Virus record (IMG/VR): IMGVR_UViG_3300045988_007046
Coordinates: 1-51,479 of that record
Length of the DNA stretch: 51,479 bases
Source: a virus
Taxonomy: Duplodnaviria; Heunggongvirae; Uroviricota; Caudoviricetes
Reading direction: 5' to 3' (one strand)
The position numbers and the translations under genes were made by a program. Below are positions 12,151 through 19,104 of this stretch, piece after piece. The number at the start of each line of letters is the position of its first letter. Position 1 is the first letter of the stretch. Under the pieces are notes generated by a model. That model made no database searches and had not been told where the DNA came from. It saw only the letters and a list, made by a program, of their open reading frames with translations.

Positions 12151-12182
12151 ATCAACAAACAAATGAGAGAAGAGAGTAAAAT

Positions 12183-13598
12183 ATGAGCGAATTATTTAAA
12201 CATGCGCACCTTCATGCAGGTCGAACTGAAAATGGTGCTGTAAACCATACTTCATCAATGTCTGCTCTTGTAGACTTTTACAAAGCTGCTGGTTCAAGCC
12301 GTAGCAACGTAGAAATCTTACCAGACCTGTTCTACAAAGCTTTGCGTGAGGATGTTGATGTTGCAGTTCGTATTTTGCTTCATATGCGAGATGTACGAGA
12401 AGGTATGGGTGAGCGTAAAGCCTTCAGAACTGTTTTACTTCAAGCGATTGAAGACAAAGTTTTAGAGCCTACGCAGGTTCTTCGCATTATGGATAAGATT
12501 GCAGAACTTGGTCGTTTTGATGACTTCAAAATCTTCGTAGGTACTCGTTTCGAGACAGATGCCTTCAAACATCTAGAAGCAGCATTACTAGACCCTGCAA
12601 CAGCAGGTTTGGCGGCTAAGTGGTTACCACGAGTCAAACCACGTCATAAGCAGTTTGTAAAACGTTTCTGCAAGTTTGCCAACTTGAGTGAGAAAGAGTA
12701 CCGCACACTGTTGTCTGCACTATCTGATACAGTTGAGCAAAAAATCTCTGCTAATGAGTTTGGTAAGATTGACTACAGTAAGATTCCTTCACTTGCTGCT
12801 GCACGTTACCAAAAACTGTTTAACCGCAAAGATGGAGAACGCTACAAAGCTTACATCGAGTCCTTATCAAAGGGTGAGACTAAGATTAATGCTGGTGCTG
12901 TTTACCCATACGATGTAATTAAATCTGTTAAGCATGGTAATGCAGATGTTGCTAATGAGCAGTGGAAAGCACTACCAAACTGGATGGCAGAGGGTGAAAA
13001 CATCTTGTGTATGTCTGATGTTTCAAGCTCAATGTCTTGGGTGAATTTTGGTTCAATTACTGCTCTTGATATTGGTGTTTCACTTGCATTGTATGTAGCA
13101 GAACGTAATACAGGTTGCTTTAAGAATGAGTTGATGGTTTATTCAACAAACCCTCACTTCATCGAACTGAGTGGTGATTTACGAAACCGTCATCGTCAGG
13201 TGATGCGACACGTTGAATATGGCTCAACTAACTTACAAGCAGCTTTTGACCGTATTCTTGAAACAGGTAAAAGAAACAACTTGACTCAGAAAGATATGCC
13301 AAGTAAGCTTATCATCTTCTCCGATATGGAGTTCAATCAGGTTGATGGAGCTAACGGTCGTACAAACTTTGAAGCAATTCGTAGTAAGTACAAAAAAGCT
13401 GGATACGAAATGCCTCAACTGGTATTCTGGTACTTAGCAAACCGTAATGGTACTTGCGAAGTGTCTGTTAAGGATAACGGTGTAGCAATGGTATCTGGTT
13501 TTTCTCCAGCTACTTTAAAAGCTCTGCTTGGTGGTGAGAAGTTTGACCCAATCAGCGTAATGCTCAAAGCAGTAATGATTGACCGTTATATCTGGTAA
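12183..13598 (+). CDS. vWA-domain protein, possibly Ro60/TROVE-like RNA-binding protein
   Basis: 471 aa; MIDAS-like D-x-S-x-S (MSDVSSSMSW) followed by vWA-like strands (ELMVYS, GSTNLQAAF, KLIIFSDMEF, GVAMVSGFS) whose order resembles the Ro60 C-terminal vWA domain; helical N-terminal region. Confidence 0.4.
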   Translation: MSELFKHAHLHAGRTENGAVNHTSSMSALVDFYKAAGSSRSNVEILPDLFYKALREDVDVAVRILLHMRDVREGMGERKAFRTVLLQAIEDKVLEPTQVLRIMDKIAELGRFDDFKIFVGTRFETDAFKHLEAALLDPATAGLAAKWLPRVKPRHKQFVKRFCKFANLSEKEYRTLLSALSDTVEQKISANEFGKIDYSKIPSLAAARYQKLFNRKDGERYKAYIESLSKGETKINAGAVYPYDVIKSVKHGNADVANEQWKALPNWMAEGENILCMSDVSSSMSWVNFGSITALDIGVSLALYVAERNTGCFKNELMVYSTNPHFIELSGDLRNRHRQVMRHVEYGSTNLQAAFDRILETGKRNNLTQKDMPSKLIIFSDMEFNQVDGANGRTNFEAIRSKYKKAGYEMPQLVFWYLANRNGTCEVSVKDNGVAMVSGFSPATLKALLGGEKFDPISVMLKAVMIDRYIW

Positions 13599-13609
13599 AA
13601 AGTTTTAAA

Positions 13610-13646
13610 AAGGGTATTGACAATGTGTTTGATGCCCTTTAATATG
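13610..13646 (+). promoter_or_regulatory. sigma70-like promoter candidate
   Basis: AAAAAGGGTATTGACA with TTGACA at 13617-13622, 17-nt spacer, TAATAT at 13640-13645. Confidence 0.5.
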
Positions 13647-13699: not shown

Positions 13700-13738
13700 A
13701 AAAGTTCTTGACAACCACTAAAAAATAATGTTAAAGTG
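13700..13738 (+). promoter_or_regulatory. sigma70-like promoter candidate upstream of the tRNA array
   Basis: AAAAAGTTCTTGACA with TTGACA at 13708-13713, TAAAGT at 13732-13737. Confidence 0.45.
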
Positions 13739-13763: not shown

Positions 13764-13840
13764 CTCTGTTTAGCTCAGCTTGGTAGAGCGTTCCGTTTGG
13801 GGCGGTAAGGCCGGAGGTTCAAGTCCTCCAACAGAGACCA
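13764..13840 (+). tRNA. tRNA-Pro (anticodon TGG)
   Basis: Hand-folded: acceptor CTCTGTT/AACAGAG with C1-G72, T-arm GGAGG-TTCAAGT-CCTCC, anticodon loop TTTGGGG, CCA encoded. Confidence 0.65.
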
Positions 13841-13847
13841 AATTAAT

Positions 13848-13925
13848 GTTCCAGTAGACAAAATGGTAAAGTCACCACTCTTTCAAAGTGGATATCTGAG
13901 GGTTCAAATCCCTTCTGGAACGCCA
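13848..13925 (+). tRNA. tRNA-Glu (anticodon TTC)
   Basis: Acceptor GTTCCAG/CTGGAAC, anticodon arm CCACT-CTTTCAA-AGTGG, T-loop TTCAAAT, CCA encoded. Confidence 0.75.
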
Positions 13926-13930
13926 GTTTT

Positions 13931-14004
13931 GACAGAAGACCAATTACAGCAAACTTAATCTACTCATCTGACACGAAATCGGACAAAGAAGATATTTGGT
14001 CTGG
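13931..14004 (+). ncRNA. structured spacer element E1 (CAGAAGACC...GGTCTGG family)
   Basis: 5' GACAGAAGACCAA pairs with 3' TTGGTCTGG; conserved internal ACAGCAA. Confidence 0.35.
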
Positions 14005-14015
14005 TCATTGAGAAT

Positions 14016-14092
14016 TGCGGGTATAGAGAAAGGGCGTCTCACATGTCTCATTAGCATGGTATCGGCAGGTTCGACTCCTGCACCCGCCTCCA
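14016..14092 (+). tRNA. tRNA with CAT anticodon (Met or Ile2), with a 1-72 mismatch
   Basis: Acceptor TGCGGGT/ACCCGCC (U1 opposite C72), anticodon arm CATGT-CTCATTA-GCATG, T-arm GCAGG-TTCGACT-CCTGC, CCA encoded. Confidence 0.55.
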
Positions 14093-14097
14093 ATTTT

Positions 14098-14158
14098 GCA
14101 GAAGACCGTATTCAGCAACAAAATACTTTTTGCGGATAAAAGAAAAAACACGGTCTGG
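14098..14158 (+). ncRNA. structured spacer element E2 (CAGAAGACC...GGTCTGG family)
   Basis: 5' GCAGAAGACCGT pairs with 3' ACGGTCTGG; internal TTCAGCAA. Confidence 0.35.
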
Positions 14159-14169
14159 CAATGTATTAA

Positions 14170-14246
14170 GGTTAGGAAGCACATAAGGTATGTGCGGTCG
14201 CCTGTTAAGCGAATGGCACAGGGTTCGAATCCCTGACTAACCGCCA
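14170..14246 (+). tRNA. tRNA-Asn (anticodon GTT)
   Basis: Acceptor GGTTAGG/ACTAACC, D-arm GCAC/GTGC, anticodon loop CTGTTAA, T-arm CAGGG-TTCGAAT-CCCTG, CCA encoded. Confidence 0.7.
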
Positions 14247-14255
14247 AATTTAAAT

Positions 14256-14343
14256 GTGTCGTTATCCCGTAGATGGTAGCGGTGGGGACTGTAAATCCCT
14301 TGTCATTGAGACTCGGTAGGTTCGACTCCTACACGACACACCA
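14256..14343 (+). tRNA. tRNA-Tyr (anticodon GTA), long variable arm
   Basis: Acceptor GTGTCGT/ACGACAC, anticodon arm GGGGA-CTGTAAA-TCCCT, long variable arm, T-arm GTAGG-TTCGACT-CCTAC, CCA encoded. Confidence 0.75.
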
Positions 14344-14348
14344 ATAAA

Positions 14349-14426
14349 GGTTATGTAGTTTAATTTGGTTAAAATACTCCCCTGTCACGGGAGATGATGA
14401 GGGTTCAAATCCCTTCGTAACCGCCA
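14349..14426 (+). tRNA. tRNA-Asp (anticodon GTC)
   Basis: Acceptor GGTTATG/CGTAACC, anticodon arm CTCCC-CTGTCAC-GGGAG, T-loop TTCAAAT, CCA encoded. Confidence 0.75.
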
Positions 14427-14432
14427 ATTTTG

Positions 14433-14478
14433 AGAGGGCTATTTAGCCCCTCCCTTAAAGAGTTCTTACGAGTATTCT
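14433..14478 (+). promoter_or_regulatory. paired hairpins in a tRNA spacer (possible processing or termination signal)
   Basis: GGGCT-ATTT-AGCCC hairpin followed by CCCTTAAAGA...TCTTTAAGGG inverted repeat enclosing GTTCTTACGAG. Confidence 0.4.
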
Positions 14479-14487
14479 TTAAGGGAG

Positions 14488-14561
14488 CAGAAGACCAAAT
14501 ACAGCAAGAATGTATGAAATTTCAAGCCAATTTAATTTTGAAAATTTAAAACTTGGTCTGG
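14488..14561 (+). ncRNA. structured spacer element E3 (CAGAAGACC...GGTCTGG family)
   Basis: 5' CAGAAGACCAAA pairs with 3' ACTTGGTCTGG; internal ACAGCAA. Confidence 0.35.
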
Positions 14562-14574
14562 CTCAACAAATTTA

Positions 14575-14706
14575 CAGAAGACCGTTTACAGCAAAACTTA
14601 AACAATCTATTTCTCCGGTAAAGAAAAGGCGAAGGTTCGATTCCTTCACTCGGCAGATGTCGAGTTGGTGTAATGGTAGCACTTAAGATGATAAACAACG
14701 GTCTGG
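14575..14706 (+). ncRNA. structured element E4: CAGAAGACC...GGTCTGG closing helix enclosing a tRNA-like module (Y-RNA/YrlA-like candidate)
   Basis: Closing helix AGACCGTT (14579-14586) with AACGGTCT; inside: perfect T-arm GAAGG-TTCGATT-CCTTC (14631-14647), 7-bp hairpin ACTCGGC-AGAT-GTCGAGT (14648-14665), D-arm-like GTGT-AATGGTA-GCAC (14668-14682). Confidence 0.4.
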
Positions 14707-14707
14707 T

Positions 14708-14851
14708 AATTATCTTTGTAGATAAGTTATTAAGCTTACCTGTGAGTATGCGACCACAAAGGGTGAAAGGGTAAATTCTAGATTTAAACCCAAAAAGGCA
14801 CATCGCTACAGACCTTAAGCAAGTCTGGGTAGCTTATCTACAAAGATAATT
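14708..14851 (+). repeat. 19-bp perfect inverted repeat enclosing a ~106-nt segment
   Basis: AATTATCTTTGTAGATAAG (14708-14726) is the exact reverse complement of CTTATCTACAAAGATAATT (14833-14851); interior holds a CAGAC...GTCTG hairpin. Confidence 0.6.
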
Positions 14852-14855
14852 TAAT

Positions 14856-14931
14856 GGAAGTGTAGCAGAATGGTGATGCGGCAGACTTTTAATCTGACAG
14901 GCGATGGGTTCGAATCCCTCCACTTCTACCA
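14856..14931 (+). tRNA. tRNA-Lys (anticodon TTT)
   Basis: Acceptor GGAAGTG/CACTTCT with G1-U72, anticodon loop CTTTTAA, T-region ATGGG-TTCGAAT-CCCTC (only 3 clean T-stem pairs), CCA encoded. Confidence 0.6.
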
Positions 14932-14936
14932 AAAAT

Positions 14937-15013
14937 GGTTCAGTCGCAGATAAGGTAATGCAAGGGTTTCATAAGCCCTATGAATGTGGGTTCGATTCCC
15001 ACCTGAACCTCCA
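14937..15013 (+). tRNA. tRNA with CAT anticodon (Met or Ile2)
   Basis: Acceptor GGTTCAG/CTGAACC, anticodon arm AGGGT-TTCATAA-GCCCT, T-arm GTGGG-TTCGATT-CCCAC, CCA encoded. Confidence 0.7.
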
Positions 15014-15014
15014 A

Positions 15015-15090
15015 GCTGGTATAGTTAAGAAGGTTATAACACTCCCCTGATAAGGGAACATCGGTGGTTCGATTCCACCTACCAGTACCA
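15015..15090 (+). tRNA. tRNA-Ile (anticodon GAT)
   Basis: Acceptor GCTGGTA/TACCAGT, anticodon loop CTGATAA, T-arm GGTGG-TTCGATT-CCACC, CCA encoded; starts 1 nt after the preceding tRNA. Confidence 0.7.
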
Positions 15091-15097
15091 ATTTCAA

Positions 15098-15136
15098 TAA
15101 AGTTGTTGACATTGAGATGTGACTACTTTATAGTAA
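15098..15136 (+). promoter_or_regulatory. sigma70-like promoter candidate inside the tRNA array
   Basis: AATAAAGTTGTTGACA with TTGACA at 15106-15111, exact 17-nt spacer, TATAGT at 15129-15134. Confidence 0.55.
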
Positions 15137-15294
15137 CCTTAGTTTTCGTTGCGTAGCGTCTATTTTGCAAATTTAAAATAAATGCAAACGACAATGTTTT
15201 TCTGGCAGTAGCTTGATAGGCTAAACACCAGTGAGGTCTTCCAATCCCTCATCAAAGAATTTGGCGTACTCGCCCACGGTATGATTAATAAGGT

Positions 15295-15336
15295 GGGCAT
15301 CTTTAAGGGCTTTCTAAGAGAGTCTTTAAAGATAAT
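15295..15336 (+). promoter_or_regulatory. spacer hairpin (ATCTTTAA...TTAAAGAT inverted repeat)
   Basis: 8-bp inverted repeat enclosing GGGCTTTCTAAGAGAGTC; related to other spacer hairpins carrying TTCTTA/CTAAGA motifs. Confidence 0.35.
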
Positions 15337-15338
15337 TA

Positions 15339-15420
15339 CGGGGCGTATCTCAGCGGTCTTCTAAACCGCCGTTAACCGAGTAAGTGGAGTATGCGGGTTC
15401 GAGTCCTGCCGCCTCGACCA
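15339..15420 (+). ncRNA. atypical tRNA-like element (possible aberrant tRNA-Arg TCT or pseudo-tRNA)
   Basis: Good acceptor CGGGGCG/CGCCTCG, T-arm GCGGG-TTCGAGT-CCTGC and CCA, but the only anticodon-like hairpin GCGGT-CTTCTAA-ACCGC lies 7 nt after the acceptor (no room for a D-arm) and is followed by a 23-nt extra region. Confidence 0.3.
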
Positions 15421-15563
15421 ATTTAGTTAGCAGATTACTTAGACGACCTAAGCGTGTCTTCCTGTAAGGAGGTGGTCTGTATCTCATGTTTTCCAGAACA
15501 TGTAAATAATCTGAGAAGGGGCTTTACAGTGTTGCGAAAATACGGTAAGCTTCGAATTACAGT

Positions 15564-15646
15564 ATGGGACGATGTTAAGACTCTAAGGCATGAGCAACGG
15601 CCTCCAAAACCGTTTCAAAGGGGTTCAACTCCTCCGTCCCATGCCA
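15564..15646 (+). tRNA. tRNA-Trp-like (anticodon CCA) with extended D region
   Basis: Exact acceptor ATGGGAC/GTCCCAT, anticodon loop CTCCAAA (identical to canonical Trp loop), T-loop TTCAACT, CCA encoded; about 7 extra nt between acceptor and anticodon stem. Confidence 0.4.
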
Positions 15647-15659
15647 AAGTCTTATTAGG

Positions 15660-15750
15660 GGTAGGTAGCGGCTAATGGTAGCCAAACTGTCTTGAAAACA
15701 GTTGCCACTGTAGAGATACGGTGAGGGTTCGACTCCTTTACTTACCGCCT
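15660..15750 (+). tRNA. tRNA-Ser (anticodon TGA), long variable arm
   Basis: Acceptor GGTAGGT/ACTTACC, anticodon arm ACTGT-CTTGAAA-ACAGT, long variable arm, T-arm GAGGG-TTCGACT-CCTTT; 3' CCA only partly encoded. Confidence 0.65.
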
Positions 15751-15900
15751 AATAAGATTTACACCGTCCATGCTTGCTCGCATTTTCGGTTTATCCCTCG
15801 TGTATTGTCGTACACTGATAAAGCACCTAGTAGGTGTCACGGAGAAGAGATAATATCAAGCTCTCCAAAGGTTCTAGTCACCGGATTAAACAAGACTATG

Positions 15901-15925
15901 CAAAGACCTATTTAGGTCTTTTTAG
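15901..15925 (+). terminator. terminator-like hairpin inside the tRNA array
   Basis: AAAGACC-TATTT-AGGTCTTT followed by TTTTA. Confidence 0.4.
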
Positions 15926-16003
15926 AGGGCTTCTAAGGTTATTAGTCGCTTGTTGTGGAACCTTGTTGCTCAGGTTCTTAGAAGTTCTCTAAAAAGATTT
16001 AAT

Positions 16004-16082
16004 GGGAGATTGACGGCAACTTGGTAGACCTATCTCGCTTAGAACGAGATGCTTGAGGGTTCGAATCCCTTGTCTCCTACCA
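16004..16082 (+). tRNA. tRNA with Leu anticodon TAG but short variable arm (atypical)
   Basis: Acceptor GGGAGAT/GTCTCCT, Leu-like D-loop CAACTTGGTAGAC, anticodon arm ATCTCG-CTTAGAA-CGAGAT, only ~4-nt variable region, T-arm GAGGG-TTCGAAT-CCCTT, A73, CCA encoded. Confidence 0.5.
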
Positions 16083-16089
16083 AATTAAT

Positions 16090-16165
16090 GCAGGTGTAGC
16101 AAAATGGTTATGCGGCTGACTCTTAATCAGTAAGACGATGGGTTCAATTCCCTCCACCTGTACCA
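16090..16165 (+). tRNA. tRNA-Lys (anticodon CTT)
   Basis: Acceptor GCAGGTG/CACCTGT, anticodon arm GCTGA-CTCTTAA-TCAGT, T-region ATGGG-TTCAATT-CCCTC (same pattern as Lys-TTT), CCA encoded. Confidence 0.65.
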
Positions 16166-16171
16166 GACATT

Positions 16172-16247
16172 GGGGATGTAGTTTACATGGTTAAAACATA
16201 AGTTTTGCAAACTTAAGTACAGGGTTCAATTCCCTGCTTCTCCACCA
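16172..16247 (+). tRNA. tRNA-Ala (anticodon TGC)
   Basis: G3-U70 pair present; D-arm GTTT/AAAC, anticodon arm TAAGT-TTTGCAA-ACTTA, T-arm CAGGG-TTCAATT-CCCTG, CCA encoded. Confidence 0.75.
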
Positions 16248-16253
16248 ATTAGT

Positions 16254-16328
16254 GCATCCATAGTTTAAACGGGAAAATTACAGTCTTCCAAACTGAGGTT
16301 GAGGGTTCGATTCCCTCTGGATGCTCCA
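16254..16328 (+). tRNA. tRNA-Gly (anticodon TCC)
   Basis: Exact acceptor GCATCCA/TGGATGC, anticodon loop CTTCCAA, T-arm GAGGG-TTCGATT-CCCTC, CCA encoded. Confidence 0.7.
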
Positions 16329-16335
16329 AATTAAT

Positions 16336-16411
16336 GCTCCTATCGTATAATTGGCTATTACGGTTGCCTTGTAAGCAACTTATCAGGGTTCGAATCCTTG
16401 TGGGAGCACCA
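16336..16411 (+). tRNA. tRNA-Thr (anticodon TGT)
   Basis: Acceptor GCTCCTA/TGGGAGC, anticodon arm GTTGC-CTTGTAA-GCAAC, T-arm CAGGG-TTCGAAT-CCTTG, CCA encoded. Confidence 0.75.
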
Positions 16412-16414
16412 ATT

Positions 16415-16502
16415 CAGAGGTCAAGTGAAAGACCGCTGGTGTCAACTGAAGACCGTAACAAATTCCACGGAGTTGAGTTAGCGGCACAACTTCAGACCTC
16501 TT
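16415..16502 (+). ncRNA. structured spacer element E5 (AGAGGTC...GACCTCT closing helix, internal GAAGACC motifs)
   Basis: CAGAGGTC at 16415-16422 pairs with GACCTCT at 16496-16502; interior has GAAAGACCG and TGAAGACCG plus CCGCT/AGCGG complementarity. Confidence 0.3.
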
Positions 16503-16506
16503 TCAT

Positions 16507-16581
16507 GCTCGCTTAGTTTATATGGTAAAACATCACCCTTACAAGATGAAGAAAAAGGTTCAAGTCCTTTAGTGAGTACCA
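16507..16581 (+). tRNA. tRNA-Val (anticodon TAC)
   Basis: Acceptor GCTCGCT/AGTGAGT (with G-U pairs), D-arm GTTT/AAAC, anticodon loop CTTACAA, T-arm AAAGG-TTCAAGT-CCTTT, CCA encoded. Confidence 0.65.
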
Positions 16582-16582
16582 T

Positions 16583-16660
16583 GTTCCAGTATCCCAATTG
16601 GCAGAGGATGCAAGCTCAAACCTTGTATTAGTGACGGTTCGAATCCGTCTTGGAACACCA
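16583..16660 (+). tRNA. tRNA with Leu anticodon CAA but short variable arm (atypical)
   Basis: Acceptor GTTCCAG/TTGGAAC, D-loop CCAATTGGCAGAG, anticodon arm GCAAG-CTCAAAC-CTTGT, short variable region, T-arm GACGG-TTCGAAT-CCGTC, A73, CCA encoded. Confidence 0.5.
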
Positions 16661-16665
16661 ATTTT

Positions 16666-16741
16666 GCAGGATTAGTTCAAATGGATAGAGCAACAGTCTA
16701 CGAAGCTGTTAATAGGGGTTCGAATCCCTTATCCTGCGCCA
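16666..16741 (+). tRNA. tRNA-Arg (anticodon ACG)
   Basis: Exact acceptor GCAGGAT/ATCCTGC, anticodon arm ACAGT-CTACGAA-GCTGT, T-arm AGGGG-TTCGAAT-CCCTT, CCA encoded. Confidence 0.7.
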
Positions 16742-16758
16742 GATAAAAAGGTGATACT

Positions 16759-17001
16759 ATGCAAACATTAACAGTAGTTGAACATGAAAACTGTGAGAAT
16801 ATTGAGTTTGTCAGGGTCATTGGTGTTGAACACCACATTTTCTTAAAAGTAGGGTACTTATGTGACCCCGCTAGAGTAGAAAGATTTATACGTGATTGTT
16901 TTGGTGGTAGACAGCTAAAGAGTGTTATTTTTGAGACAGTTTTACCAGAAGGTTTAGAAACGAATAATAACATTTATCTCCTTACAAGGATTAGACGATG
17001 A
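16759..17001 (+). CDS. hypothetical protein embedded in the tRNA array
   Basis: 80-aa ORF starting 18 nt after tRNA-Arg; 4-nt overlap with the next ORF. Confidence 0.4.
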   Translation: MQTLTVVEHENCENIEFVRVIGVEHHIFLKVGYLCDPARVERFIRDCFGGRQLKSVIFETVLPEGLETNNNIYLLTRIRR

Positions 17002-17555
17002 GATATTTAAAATATGCTTCATGGATTTTCCTAGCTTTGCTAGAACCATTAGCAGCAACCTTAGCAGTTATCTTAGCACCTTTCGTAGTTCCATTTTACA
17101 GTGAGAAGAAAGGCCACTTACCTTTCGGATTTAGATGGATGGAGACATATGACAACCCAATTGATGGTGACGAAGGTCATATCGAACGATGGGCTAAGAT
17201 TAGAAAGATTGGTAAGCTGGGTGTCTACATGCAGAGAGTCGGATGGCTCTGGAGAAACAAAGCTTATAACTTCTCTTACCATGTATTAGGAAGAGATGTA
17301 AAAGATGTTACTAAGTGGAAAGGTAATATCAACGTAAGTTCTGACCCTGAAGATAATCAGACAGGTTATCTCCTAATGTGGAACAGTAATGCTTGGGGAT
17401 TATTCGCTTTTATCCCATCAATTAAAGTCTTTGGTAAACAGTTTTACTGGAGAATTTATATTGGATGGAAACTAAAAAGTGTTGTCCCAGAAGAAAGAGC
17501 ATTCTCAAGGGAAAGAGTTATGTTGGCATTCTTTATTCATCCACTGAGAAAGTAA
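16998..17555 (+). CDS. hypothetical membrane protein embedded in the tRNA array
   Basis: 185 aa; N-terminal hydrophobic segment WIFLALLEPLAATLAVILAPFVV; Trp-rich. Confidence 0.5.
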   Translation: MRYLKYASWIFLALLEPLAATLAVILAPFVVPFYSEKKGHLPFGFRWMETYDNPIDGDEGHIERWAKIRKIGKLGVYMQRVGWLWRNKAYNFSYHVLGRDVKDVTKWKGNINVSSDPEDNQTGYLLMWNSNAWGLFAFIPSIKVFGKQFYWRIYIGWKLKSVVPEERAFSRERVMLAFFIHPLRK

Positions 17556-17563
17556 AGATTTAA

Positions 17564-17639
17564 AGGGGATTAGTTTACAAGGTTAAAACCTCGGTCTTTG
17601 AAATCGAAGAAGTTGGTTCAATTCCAACATCCCCCGCCA
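17564..17639 (+). tRNA. tRNA-Gln (anticodon TTG)
   Basis: Acceptor AGGGGAT/ATCCCCC (weak 1-72 pair), D-arm GTTT/AAAC, anticodon arm TCGGT-CTTTGAA-ATCGA, T-arm GTTGG-TTCAATT-CCAAC, CCA encoded. Confidence 0.65.
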
Positions 17640-17641
17640 AT

Positions 17642-17720
17642 GCTCCATTACTCCAATTGGCAGAGAGGCCAGACTTAAAATCTGTGTTATGTATCGGTTC
17701 GAATCCGATATGGAGTACCA
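17642..17720 (+). tRNA. tRNA with Leu anticodon TAA but short variable arm (atypical)
   Basis: Acceptor GCTCCAT/ATGGAGT, D-loop CCAATTGGCAGAG (shared with 16583-16660), anticodon loop CTTAAAA, ~7-nt variable region, T-arm ATCGG-TTCGAAT-CCGAT, A73, CCA encoded. Confidence 0.5.
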
Positions 17721-17725
17721 AATTT

Positions 17726-17801
17726 AGCGGTATAGCATAACTGGCAATGCAACAGTCTCTGAAGCTGTCCTATTAAGGTTCAAATCCTTATGCCGCTGCC
17801 A
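17726..17801 (+). tRNA. tRNA-Gln (anticodon CTG)
   Basis: Acceptor AGCGGTA/TGCCGCT, D-arm GCAT/ATGC, anticodon arm ACAGT-CTCTGAA-GCTGT, T-arm TAAGG-TTCAAAT-CCTTA, CCA encoded. Confidence 0.7.
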
Positions 17802-17802
17802 C

Positions 17803-17830
17803 TTCTAAGGGTTCTTACGAGAGTCCTTAA
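17803..17830 (+). promoter_or_regulatory. spacer hairpin carrying the GTTCTTACGAG motif
   Basis: CTAAGG-GTTCTTACGAGAGT-CCTTAA; same loop motif as the hairpin at 14445-14478. Confidence 0.4.
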
Positions 17831-17832
17831 AT

Positions 17833-17908
17833 GTGGCCTTATCATAAATGGTAATGACCCATGCTGTGAACATGGTCTATACGGGTTCAAATCCCGTAGG
17901 TCACCCCA
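17833..17908 (+). tRNA. tRNA-His (anticodon GTG)
   Basis: Acceptor GTGGCCT/AGGTCAC, D-arm TCAT/ATGA, anticodon arm CCATG-CTGTGAA-CATGG, T-arm ACGGG-TTCAAAT-CCCGT, CCA encoded. Confidence 0.75.
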
Positions 17909-17913
17909 ATTTA

Positions 17914-17990
17914 TAGTCCAAGTAGCTTATATGGTTAAAGCGCGTGTCTGAAAAACATGAGAAGAGGGTTCAAATCCCACTGGACTACCA
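17914..17990 (+). tRNA. tRNA-Phe (anticodon GAA)
   Basis: Exact acceptor TAGTCCA/TGGACTA, anticodon arm CGTGT-CTGAAAA-ACATG, T-loop TTCAAAT; 3' CCA not cleanly encoded. Confidence 0.6.
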
Positions 17991-18006
17991 ATTTCAAAGG
18001 TGCTTA

Positions 18007-18741
18007 ATGAAAGAGATGACAGAACAAGGTAAGGAGATTTTTAATCTCTTAAAAACCGGTAAAGGGTTTTCTAACCCACTTATTACTGGTGCAGCAGTTC
18101 TCGGTGGAACCGTAGCTGCCTCTACATCACTTGTAAGCTCTATTAGTTCTGTAACAGACCCTACAATGCAGGAGAAACTTGTTGCTGCTGGACTTACAAC
18201 AGTCCTTCTAAACAGCTTTACAACAAGCCTTACAAGCACTACAGCAACTACTAAGACCCTGACAGACTACGGTCAAAAGTCTATTGATGAGTTTTCATCA
18301 CGTATGCAGGTAGCAAAGGGATATTCCAATGTTATGAGTGCAGCAGGAGAACAAGTTGGTTGTACACCGTTCAGTGGTATTATGGGTGTTGCTACAGAAT
18401 ATGGTCAAAAAGCTATTGATACAATTAACAGTACACTAGAGAGTGTTAACGATGTATTAAGTGACTTACAAGACGCTATTGATGAGGGTCTTGATACTAT
18501 TTCTGATTTAGCTAATCAGGCTGTTAGTAAGATTAATGAAGGTATTTCAAAGATTACAGCTTATGCAGATGAAGTTGTGCAGATGATTGAAGAAGAAGCT
18601 GCCCTTATTGCAGAGTACCTTAAAACGAATATCAATGGGTTCTTAGCAGGTATCTTACCAGACTGGTTTGACGATGCCTGTAAAACTGGTGTAATTGACA
18701 CTATTGCAACACCAGAAATGAAGAACGCATTACAGAAATAA
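18007..18741 (+). CDS. hypothetical Ser/Thr-rich protein embedded in the tRNA array
   Basis: ORF track gives 17944-18741 but that start overlaps tRNA-Phe; first ATG clear of the tRNA is 18007 (MKEMTEQGKE), preceded by AAGGTG; hydrophobic/Ser-Thr-rich N-half, acidic helical C-half. Confidence 0.5.
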   Translation: MKEMTEQGKEIFNLLKTGKGFSNPLITGAAVLGGTVAASTSLVSSISSVTDPTMQEKLVAAGLTTVLLNSFTTSLTSTTATTKTLTDYGQKSIDEFSSRMQVAKGYSNVMSAAGEQVGCTPFSGIMGVATEYGQKAIDTINSTLESVNDVLSDLQDAIDEGLDTISDLANQAVSKINEGISKITAYADEVVQMIEEEAALIAEYLKTNINGFLAGILPDWFDDACKTGVIDTIATPEMKNALQK

Positions 18742-18743
18742 AT

Positions 18744-18836
18744 GGAAGATTAACCCTAAAAGGTAAGGGAGCAGTTTGCTAAACTGCCAGTAGCTGAGAA
18801 ATCGGTGTACCAGTTCAAGTCTGGTATCTTCCTCCA
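18744..18836 (+). tRNA. tRNA-Ser (anticodon GCT), long variable arm
   Basis: Exact acceptor GGAAGAT/ATCTTCC, anticodon arm GCAGT-TTGCTAA-ACTGC, long variable arm, T-arm ACCAG-TTCAAGT-CTGGT, CCA encoded. Confidence 0.75.
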
Positions 18837-18840
18837 ATTT

Positions 18841-18916
18841 GAATCCGTGACAGAAATGGCTATGTGCCTGTCTGCAAAACAGGTTTATAAGGGTTCGAGT
18901 CCCTTCGGATTCTCCA
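18841..18916 (+). tRNA. tRNA-Cys (anticodon GCA)
   Basis: Exact acceptor GAATCCG/CGGATTC, anticodon arm CCTGT-CTGCAAA-ACAGG, T-arm AAGGG-TTCGAGT-CCCTT, CCA encoded. Confidence 0.75.
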
Positions 18917-19078: not shown

Positions 19079-19104
19079 GACGGTCTCTGTGCCGTCTTTT
19101 TTAA
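19079..19104 (+). terminator. rho-independent terminator
   Basis: GACGG-TCTCTGTG-CCGTC hairpin followed by TTTTTT. Confidence 0.6.

Follow-up and report, generated by a model that had tools for sequence, protein, structure and literature searches.

Genes and junctions of the locus

The DNA described here, a stretch of 51,479 nucleotides (nt) covering positions 1 to 51,479 of IMG/VR virus record IMGVR_UViG_3300045988_007046 (hereafter the window), contains a long array of transfer RNA (tRNA) genes into which three protein-coding open reading frames (ORFs) are packed. The 5.9-kb region around these ORFs is 99.7% identical to Escherichia phage vB_EcoM_ASO1A and has matches in over 400 Felix O1-like records, which are Ounavirinae and for the most part Felixounavirus; judged by this similarity, the window is that of a Felixounavirus, a Felix O1-like phage. 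The array extends from 13764 to 18916 and holds 25 tRNA genes found by ARAGORN, all on the + strand, and a 26th at 15339-15417 that ARAGORN missed, that was matched by Rfam only (31.7 bits) and that is labelled tRNA-Arg in relatives, in which the array is also annotated. ORF1 (16759..17001, + strand, 80 amino acids (aa)) follows tRNA-Arg(ACG), the final tRNA gene ahead of it, which has an encoded CCA end (16666..16741, +), and runs into ORF2 (16998..17555, +, 185 aa). A sub-cluster of five tRNA genes, Gln(TTG), Leu(TAA), Gln(CTG), His and Phe (17564..17990, +), lies between ORF2 and ORF3 (18007..18741, +, 244 aa), and the array closes with tRNA-Ser(GCT) and tRNA-Cys (18744..18916, +). All three ORFs are present between tRNA sub-clusters where a preliminary description, made from the sequence, had placed them. 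Its account of ORF2 as a Trp-rich membrane protein of 185 aa is matched by 10 Trp residues (5.4%) and one hydrophobic transmembrane (TM) segment at residues 9-27 in a hydropathy scan. Its account of ORF3 as Ser/Thr-rich fits a Ser+Thr content of 20.5%, but the length that it gave, 245 aa, is corrected here to 244. In the list of ORFs ORF3 begins at GTG 17944, inside tRNA-Phe; the conserved start is not this codon but ATG 18007, with the Shine-Dalgarno sequence AAAGGTG.

Pairwise Nei-Gojobori comparison against relatives gave ratios of nonsynonymous to synonymous substitution (dN/dS) of 0.15-0.24 for ORF1, 0.05-0.12 for ORF2 and 0.07-0.26 for ORF3, with no internal stop codon or indel in any of the three even at a synonymous divergence (dS) of ~1 (up to 1.1). 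Given this purifying selection, the matches to Pfam and PHROG families, the homologs down to 26-45% identity and the confident AlphaFold2 models described below, all three ORFs are, on their sequences, genuine genes. Coding sequences are annotated for them in RefSeq records of relatives (e.g. FDI04_gp130-132), typing phage 1 has all three, and the counterparts of ORF2 and ORF3 in Felix O1 are annotated as ORF48 and ORF49, transcripts of which were detected by reverse transcription PCR (RT-PCR) with a maximal signal at 5 min (PMC3185647). The notion that the ORFs arose by chance in the spacers between tRNAs and have no coding function draws on the small size of ORF1 and the lack of a known function, and on nothing further; it is taken as refuted by frames that stay intact with dN/dS well below 1 at such divergence, and the strong family matches, the remote homologs in other phage families, the structure predictions and the Felix O1 transcripts speak against it as well.

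The junctions between these genes and the tRNA genes are short. The 17-nt leader of ORF1 (16742..16758, +) fills the whole gap between the CCA end of tRNA-Arg(ACG) at 16741 and the ATG, and holds the Shine-Dalgarno sequence GGTGA; the ORF1 stop and ORF2 start codons overlap as ATGA; and 8 nt separate the ORF2 stop from tRNA-Gln, 16 nt tRNA-Phe from the ORF3 ATG and 2 nt the ORF3 stop from tRNA-Ser(GCT). Across 24 related loci these gaps are near-fixed, at 8 nt between ORF2 and the next tRNA, 16-17 nt between tRNA and ORF3 and 1-2 nt between ORF3 and the next tRNA, and the distance from tRNA to ORF2 is 18-19 nt in loci without ORF1 and 256-257 nt in loci with it. At locus L030 the 8-nt gap is kept though the downstream tRNA is Ser(TGA) and not Gln.

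Promoters were scored as matches to the sigma-70 consensus only. Two such matches lie just 5' of the first tRNA (13617-13645 and 13708-13737, +, each 10/12 positions, the latter with an extended -10 TG), and an internal match, TTGACA-17-TATAGT (15106..15134, +, 11/12), is identical to P45, a promoter proposed for Felix O1 (PMC3185647). The first strong intrinsic terminator-like structure after the array is the hairpin GACGGTCTCTGTGCCGTC followed by T6 (19079..19102, +; hairpin 19079-19096), which separates the array from the genes that lie 3' of it, in order a 66-aa gene, the large terminase gene (TerL) and the portal gene; no strong intrinsic terminator was found on the + strand ahead of 19079. 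The ORFs abut same-strand tRNA genes with no strong terminator in between, as is expected of a tRNA-punctuated layout. Given that the 5' gaps of 16-19 nt hold just a Shine-Dalgarno sequence, that the 3' gaps measure 1-8 nt and that this spacing is conserved, there is no space for promoters or terminators belonging to the ORFs themselves, and co-transcription with the tRNAs is the only simple reading. The co-transcription proposed in the preliminary description is therefore strongly implied by the sequence, and P45, the terminator and the RT-PCR transcripts of Felix O1 ORF48 and ORF49 add to its support. In E. coli, RNase P cuts the 5' ends of tRNAs, and RNase E and exonucleases act at the 3' side; by analogy with this established processing we infer that the mRNAs would be released from the tRNA precursor in the same way.

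Relatives and origins of the three genes

ORF2 matches Pfam DUF7338 (a domain of unknown function, PF24027) over its full length, residues 1-184 aligning to profile positions 1-176 of 180 (209.4 bits, E 4.3e-62; gathering score 27 bits), and also belongs to phrog_2143. Together with the N-terminal TM helix it carries the family motifs T-x-D-N...G-D, W-L-W-R-N-x-x-Y and G-W-K, and an alignment of 33 homologs shows T50, D52, G57, W83, W85, R86, N87, Y90, R152, G156, W157 and K158 to be invariant. The AlphaFold2 model (predicted local distance difference test score, pLDDT, 94.4) consists of an N-terminal helix (2-33), short helices and a five-strand sheet, such that ORF2 is predicted to be a Trp-rich alpha/beta domain behind a single TM helix. 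Among fold relatives BFVD gives unannotated family members only and the DUF7338 profile matches nothing among all PDB sequences; as modelled, the fold is one without a solved relative. An N-in/C-out topology, in which the Trp-rich domain is most likely periplasmic, is favoured by the short basic N-terminus, by the acidic flank past the TM helix and by the several Cys residues that distant homologs have in their ectodomain. A literature search returned no paper mentioning DUF7338, none mentioning DUF7217, the family of ORF3, and no Felixounavirus transcriptome.

Homologs of ORF2 occur in nearly all Felixounavirus genomes, in many T4-like Straboviridae at 56-61% aa identity (Dhakavirus, Mosigvirus, Pseudotevenvirus, Karamvirus-type phages and others), in one 121-kb T5-like contig (L031) at 80% aa identity and in many uncultivated viral contigs at 26-45% identity. 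All loci at least 55% identical to ORF2, except L040, have same-strand tRNAs within ~1 kb, and the association spans at least six distinct tRNA contexts. DUF7338 lies between tRNA-Asp and tRNA-Ser in L030, between tRNA-Gly and tRNA-Gln in the T5-like contig and between tRNA-Phe and tRNA-Met in T4-like phages with 18-19 tRNAs; it follows tRNA-Met-Asn-Arg in JS10 and tRNA-Met-Gly in GAP161, and in L063 and L066 (33% identity) it starts 16-20 nt after tRNA-Met. The copy in L040 (4917-5554 of a 121-kb contig, 82% nt identity), the only close homolog with no tRNAs in its vicinity, is broken into two overlapping ORFs, either by a frameshift or as a pseudogene. Between phage families nucleotide homology ends at the borders of ORF2 (window 16990-17561 against L030), and the tRNAs that flank it are 61-89% identical, no more alike than other tRNAs; since homology is confined to the gene, ORF2 moves alone, and its transfer between families en bloc with tRNAs is ruled out.

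In more than 25 homolog loci no tRNA lies within 5 kb of DUF7338, which stands beside lysis genes instead, in several of these contigs between tail-fibre and lysis genes. In L078 it stands between a tail-fibre assembly gene and a holin gene of the GTA_holin_3TM family (also phrog_3427), which a GH108-type endolysin gene follows; the order in L089 is tail fibre, DUF7338, a holin-like TM ORF and a GH108-type endolysin, and in L062 DUF7338, a GTA_holin_3TM holin and a GH108-type endolysin. It lies between a tail fibre gene and the genes for an 89-aa TM protein and a SAR (signal-arrest-release) endolysin in L058, between a two-TM protein and an amidase in L069, and between gp12 and lysozyme e in Aeromonas phage Ah1, so that four endolysin types are found among its lysis-side neighbours. 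Within the GH108-type endolysin gene of L062 (6192-6377) and L089 (6201-6380), both from phages without recognisable spanins, a conserved ORF of 59-61 aa with two TM segments runs in an alternative frame and may be an embedded lysis gene. An apparent fusion of DUF7338 to a tail-fibre Gp53-like_C domain in the 1.1-kb contig P0035 was set aside as a likely chimera. Neither PLSDB nor any of 5,426 complete E. coli genomes contains DUF7338, which identifies ORF2 as a gene of virulent phages and rules out a prophage or plasmid moron that serves in lysogenic conversion. On these comparisons, ORF2 is a cassette of one gene that spreads horizontally and has settled repeatedly in two places, tRNA clusters and the junction of tail-fibre and lysis genes.

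ORF3 likewise matches its Pfam family, DUF7217 (PF23854), over the full length, with residues 8-243 on profile positions 2-238 of 238 (298.5 bits, E 5.1e-89; gathering score 29 bits), and also belongs to phrog_2114. The 25.7-kDa protein is acidic (isoelectric point, pI, 4.3), has two invariant cysteines (C119 and C225) and an N-terminal GxxFxNPL motif, and is modelled by AlphaFold2 as an all-alpha helical bundle (pLDDT 93.8). DUF7217 occurs only in Ounavirinae and Ackermannviridae. The ORF3 homolog of Erwinia phage M7 (Kolesnikvirus) comes directly after tRNA-Ser(GCT), the last of 27 tRNAs, and is followed by two small ORFs and then TerL, which puts it past the array and not inside it; in Kuttervirus the homolog lies between head genes and a gp3-like tail-completion gene. 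These two positions and the range of the family mark ORF3 as an ancestral neighbour of packaging and morphogenesis genes. As far as the sequences tell, it is ancestral and not cargo of the array, tRNA-Ser and tRNA-Cys having ended up downstream of it in Felixounavirus, and its product may serve in assembly or be a protein held inside the virion or present there in low copy. A role as a DNA end protector like T4 gp2, an idea taken from the adjacency to gp3 in Ackermannviridae, was ruled out as far as homology is concerned.

ORF1 is predicted to be soluble and is an orphan, with a match to phrog_14202 (E 4e-37) and a conserved C-terminal motif, FETvLPE..T.NN.YLLTRiR. It is present in half of the related loci (12 of 24), has relatives in only 3 clusters among 1.84 billion representative proteins and occurs in only 70 phage records, all of them Ounavirinae and invariably with ORF1 directly upstream of ORF2. 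In loci without ORF1, ORF2 is instead preceded directly by an 18-19-nt leader of unrelated sequence that has a GAGG Shine-Dalgarno sequence of its own, and ORF1 alleles differ by dS ~0.9-1.1 in genomes whose ORF2 differs from that of the window by dS ~0.2-0.3. The presence or absence of the gene, the replaced leader and the deep allelic divergence point to a discrete exchangeable module, and by its sequence ORF1 is a fast-evolving, presence/absence-polymorphic orphan that is translationally coupled to ORF2.

The three genes are not one functional module, and their origins differ. The preliminary description had regarded them as cargo, which in phage tRNA islands it held to act often in host interaction or anti-defence; as cargo, the word suits ORF1 and ORF2, which behave as mobile or variable genes, but not ORF3, whose homologs stand past the array (Kolesnikvirus) or among structural genes (Ackermannviridae). 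The proposed function finds no support, in that neither Pfam nor NCBIfam gives a functional match for any of the three and PADLOC, which covers defence-system proteins, gives nothing meaningful (no match for ORF1 and ORF2, and for ORF3 only a weak coiled-coil likeness to the tail of ZorA, E 6e-5, 19.8 bits). Scans of Pfam, PHROG and NCBIfam also found no GIY-YIG or HNH nuclease domain in ORF1-3. The contexts in which ORF2 occurs suggest a role at the cell envelope or in lysis more than any known function in anti-defence.

Competing readings of the locus

The best explanation overall, to which we give a probability of about 0.6, is that of one tRNA-array transcription unit with three packed genes that do not form a functional module. 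The array would be transcribed by the host RNA polymerase as a single unit, from promoters at ~13.6-13.7 kb and 15.1 kb to the terminator at 19.08 kb, and the ORFs, being so tightly packed, could be expressed only from the tRNA precursor. Their mRNA segments would be translated either on the unprocessed precursor or as pieces bounded by the cuts that mature the tRNAs, with RNase P cutting where the downstream tRNA begins, and with RNase E or trimming of 3' ends acting after the upstream tRNA. Given that a ribosome at the ORF3 stop codon would cover the 5' part of tRNA-Ser, translation and tRNA maturation are expected to compete on each precursor. Within this unit, the array would have grown or rearranged around ORF3, an ancestral Ounavirinae gene beside the packaging genes; ORF2 would be a single-pass inner-membrane protein that acts on the host envelope; and ORF1 would be a polymorphic orphan coupled to ORF2 in translation. 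For ORF2, autonomous action on the envelope, as an accessory or timing factor in lysis or in the exclusion of other phages, is most likely, which we infer from its presence in unrelated phages without a co-transferred partner, from the strong constraint on its sequence and, for an envelope or lysis role, from its location at the junction of tail-fibre and holin-endolysin genes in small phages. Several points weigh against this explanation. Weak promoter-like hexamers lie within the ORFs (16941-16968 and 17435-17462), and internal promoters are possible, sites in the sigma-70 scan of the region being at the level of shuffled sequence (21 found, 20.9 expected). The RT-PCR timing in Felix O1 is crude, capsid genes being likewise 'maximal at 5 min' (PMC3185647). 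The step from ORF2 to the envelope is the weakest link of the explanation, and both habitats of DUF7338 are also general hot-spots for accessory genes. Support for ORF3 in the virion is weak, with two peptides from a distant family and no entry in the shotgun list of Felix O1, and no PDB chain corresponds to it although the virion structures of Bas63 and Sf14 are deposited.

Were the ORFs independent units, with their own promoters inside the preceding tRNA genes or ORFs, tRNA processing would be irrelevant to them. Matches such as that at 16941-16968, upstream of ORF2, would serve such a purpose, and the sigma-70 scan is blind to middle or late promoters of unknown consensus; nevertheless, this is unlikely given gaps with room for a Shine-Dalgarno sequence only, promoter-like sites at shuffle frequency, spacing that is kept even where the flanking tRNA differs and no terminator between the ORFs and the downstream tRNAs. 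For ORF2, the records of SLAM_phiST56, ESCO45, HP1 and Yersinia phage P8 carry the label 'holin', which would make it a class III holin like T4 T, in which a large periplasmic domain follows a single TM helix. ORF2 does share an N-terminal TM helix and an extracytoplasmic domain of ~150 aa with T4 holin T, antiholin RI and i-spanin Rz, the endolysin gene is adjacent in several small phages and in Aeromonas phage Ah1, and no holin gene lies beside the Felix O1 lysin. However, no Pfam or PHROG holin family matches ORF2 at E<=1, whereas T4 T, as positive control, matches PF11031 (Phage_holin_T) at 1.5e-118, and hhalign of the DUF7338 profile against T4 T gives a probability of 0.1%. ORF2 and T have no sequence relationship, and the ORF2 domain is globular alpha/beta and not a coiled coil. 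In L062 and L078 a separate GTA_holin_3TM gene parts DUF7338 from the endolysin, in L089 a homologous TM-bearing ORF, itself not scanned, takes that position, and other small TM proteins adjoin DUF7338 in L069 and L058. The T4-like phages that carry DUF7338 belong to a family that uses the T holin, the t gene having been looked at in T4 itself only. The early peak of the Felix O1 transcript also argues against a holin (PMC3185647), a function that we hold to be improbable, and on its sequence the widespread label on DUF7338 is unsupported. An i-spanin like Rz was rejected, given the globular domain with its five-strand sheet and no coiled coil: no o-spanin lipobox ORF was found within or next to ORF2 in the window, L062, L078, L089 or L069 (one 38-aa lipobox match lies inside the endolysin gene of L058), the gene moves without a cognate holin or spanin and with no lipoprotein partner found, and Ounavirinae have separate spanin genes of their own (PMC7925395). 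The recurrent linkage to tRNAs in Ounavirinae, T4-like and T5-like phages and unclassified contigs raises the possibility that ORF2 serves in tRNA biology, by protecting, repairing or modifying phage tRNAs, but a TM helix with a probably periplasmic domain, the lack of any match to a nucleic-acid-related family or fold and the many homologs that stand beside lysis genes far from any tRNA make this very unlikely. A further proposal, compatible with an envelope role and tentative at best, is that DUF7338 is a promoter-less hitchhiker of tRNA arrays and an autonomous periplasmic effector, spread by homing endonucleases. It would have lodged independently between the tRNA genes of Felix O1-, T4- and T5-like phages because individually processed tRNAs offer a foreign ORF strong early transcription and leave the neighbours undisturbed; its expression would be gated by the contest of ribosome and RNase P, the stop codon being 8 nt (for ORF3, 2 nt) from the next tRNA; homing endonucleases active in arrays would be what spreads it; and the product would be a new periplasmic effector that acts on the host envelope, in exclusion or lysis control.

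For ORF3, the reading that comes closest to competing with an ancestral gene enclosed by the array is that of a virion protein (internal and ejected, or a minor head or tail protein) that belongs to the downstream packaging and head module and is flanked by tRNAs incidentally; it is a real possibility, though one we think falls short of even odds. In all Ounavirinae the gene has the 66-aa gene, TerL and portal as its neighbours. In Ackermannviridae it is syntenic with the structural region, and a protein in the syntenic position, LIMEstone1 ORF129 (25.03 kDa, 2 peptides), was detected in virions by mass spectrometry, after which members came to be labelled 'unknown structural protein', on a thin basis. 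Weak PHROG similarity to tape-measure proteins and the two invariant cysteines point the same way, as would the assignment of a virion band to 'gp49' in Felix O1 (PMC3185647). That band, a major one, is of 51 kDa and is suggested in the text of the same paper to be perhaps the sheath, its shotgun table lists gp63 (48.9 kDa), and the deposited ORF49 is the 25.7-kDa DUF7217 protein, which it does not fit; the statement is probably a numbering inconsistency, a slip for the sheath protein, from which the expectation of a 'structural' ORF49 stems, and the band was set aside as evidence on ORF49. The terminator between ORF3 and the late genes and the early RT-PCR peak also stand against a virion protein, as does the shotgun list from which it is missing (PMC3185647). 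The virion paper on Bas63, a Felixounavirus, compares its model with that of Sf14 (PMC12609058), and no PDB chain matches the DUF7217 profile, whereas a major capsid protein query, as control, matches 9ncf and 9c2d; given these whole-virion cryo-EM models, ORF3 is not an ordered, modelled virion component. Virion mass spectrometry of Sajous1 (PMC10892097) could not be mapped to the DUF7217 homolog, its gene numbering being unresolved. It has also been considered that ORF3, ORF1 or both are early anti-defence factors, with ORF3 for example as a Gam-like inhibitor of RecBCD. GenBank AF071201, a Felix O1 fragment of 1998, has a coding sequence 'red' with the note 'complements red mutants of bacteriophage lambda', which corresponds to the N-terminal part of ORF49 in a frameshifted early sequence; the low pI, all-alpha fold and early transcript peak of ORF3 are in keeping with such a role, and the polymorphism and deep allelic divergence of ORF1 are typical of arms-race genes. 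This is nevertheless unlikely: ORF3 is a slow-evolving gene syntenic with structural genes in two families, and no similarity in sequence or fold to Red-beta, Exo, Gam, Ocr or T4 gp2 was found; the claim of complementation was not traced to a source paper, and the cloned fragment also held tRNA genes.

Neighbouring features and known systems

On its 5' side the array is preceded by a DUF5681 gene and, directly upstream, by a DUF2828/DUF7788 gene (window ~12180-13600; L002 1681-3096), a homolog of Felix O1 ORF42 that RefSeq labels 'RNA-binding protein' and that has a von Willebrand factor A (vWFA) annotation in some records. An RNA-binding, vWA-like protein encoded just 5' of a 26-tRNA operon may have a functional link to the array; a vWA protein is also present in LIMEstone1 virions. 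Genes for HNH endonucleases number three in the Felix O1 array (L009 5031-5516, 6004-6396 and 7314-7727), one in that of SLAM_phiST56 (L001 3868-4296) and none in that of the window, which marks the array as a hot-spot of homing endonucleases with presence or absence at the level of strains. The 95-nt spacer between tRNA-Thr and tRNA-Val (16412-16506) is almost invariant across Ounavirinae whose genes differ by 5-20%, and its 27-nt core (16441-16467) recurs without change in 24 contigs of Ounavirinae and in one T5-like contig of 121 kb, there behind a tRNA-Gly that is 89% identical. The spacer folds as a long hairpin (-30.7 kcal/mol, z -2.9), whose outer stem is retained in the T5-like copy but made of other bases, and has no Rfam family; it is a candidate for a small stable RNA co-processed with the tRNAs, like T4 rnaC/rnaD. 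The tRNA-Gly(TCC) genes in question (window 16254-16328, L031 4574-4648) are more alike than the other shared tRNAs (61-83%), which suggests that this tRNA and the adjoining spacer RNA passed together, as a small block, between phages of the Felix-like and T5-like kinds.

That phage tRNA clusters can enclose protein genes is well known, with T4 segB as precedent. Transcription of the T4 tRNA region yields precursors on which RNase P and further RNases of the host act, and segB is embedded in this region on the same strand and with minimal spacing (41 nt after tRNA-Ile, 5 nt before tRNA-Arg), near the stable RNAs rnaC/rnaD. Unlike ORF1-3, which have no nuclease motifs, segB encodes a GIY-YIG homing endonuclease, and the Felix-type array is three times larger than that of T4, with three embedded non-endonuclease genes. 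In the tRNA-punctuated transcripts of mitochondria and in the thrU-tyrU-glyT-thrT-tufB operon of E. coli, mRNA segments abut tRNAs in one precursor, and in tRNA-punctuated transcripts the nucleases that process tRNAs define the mRNA ends. The ORF3 stop codon 2 nt before tRNA-Ser resembles this arrangement, and processing of the present transcript is presumed. Bacterial mRNAs differ from those of mitochondria in having no stop codons completed by polyadenylation, and the tufB operon differs in that all its tRNAs precede the mRNA, whereas here tRNAs lie on both sides. The closest counterpart is that of Felix O1 itself (NC_005282; Whichard et al. 2010), in which ORF48 and ORF49 are the same genes at 95% aa identity with the same tRNA neighbours; it differs in that ORF1 is missing and the three HNH endonuclease genes (ORF44/45/47) are found elsewhere in the array.

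The window genes are 95-100% identical to annotated genes, the families of ORF2 and ORF3 are already Pfam DUFs, and both the arrangement and the genes are known from annotation in hundreds of related phages, such that the window adds no new kind of element and the feature is real, conserved and largely ordinary. What is gained is the demonstration of selection on three ORFs, a 'holin' label on DUF7338 that is seen to be unsupported, and the recurrent links of DUF7338 to tRNA clusters and lysis cassettes. With junctions of 1-19 nt that are invariant across the genus, the locus offers a natural test bed for how a single bacterial precursor serves both the translation of mRNA and the maturation of tRNAs. 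If it is true that DUF7338 is an envelope-directed factor of exclusion or lysis, this would be relevant to phages of the Felix O1-like and T4-like kinds used in therapy, many of them having the gene.

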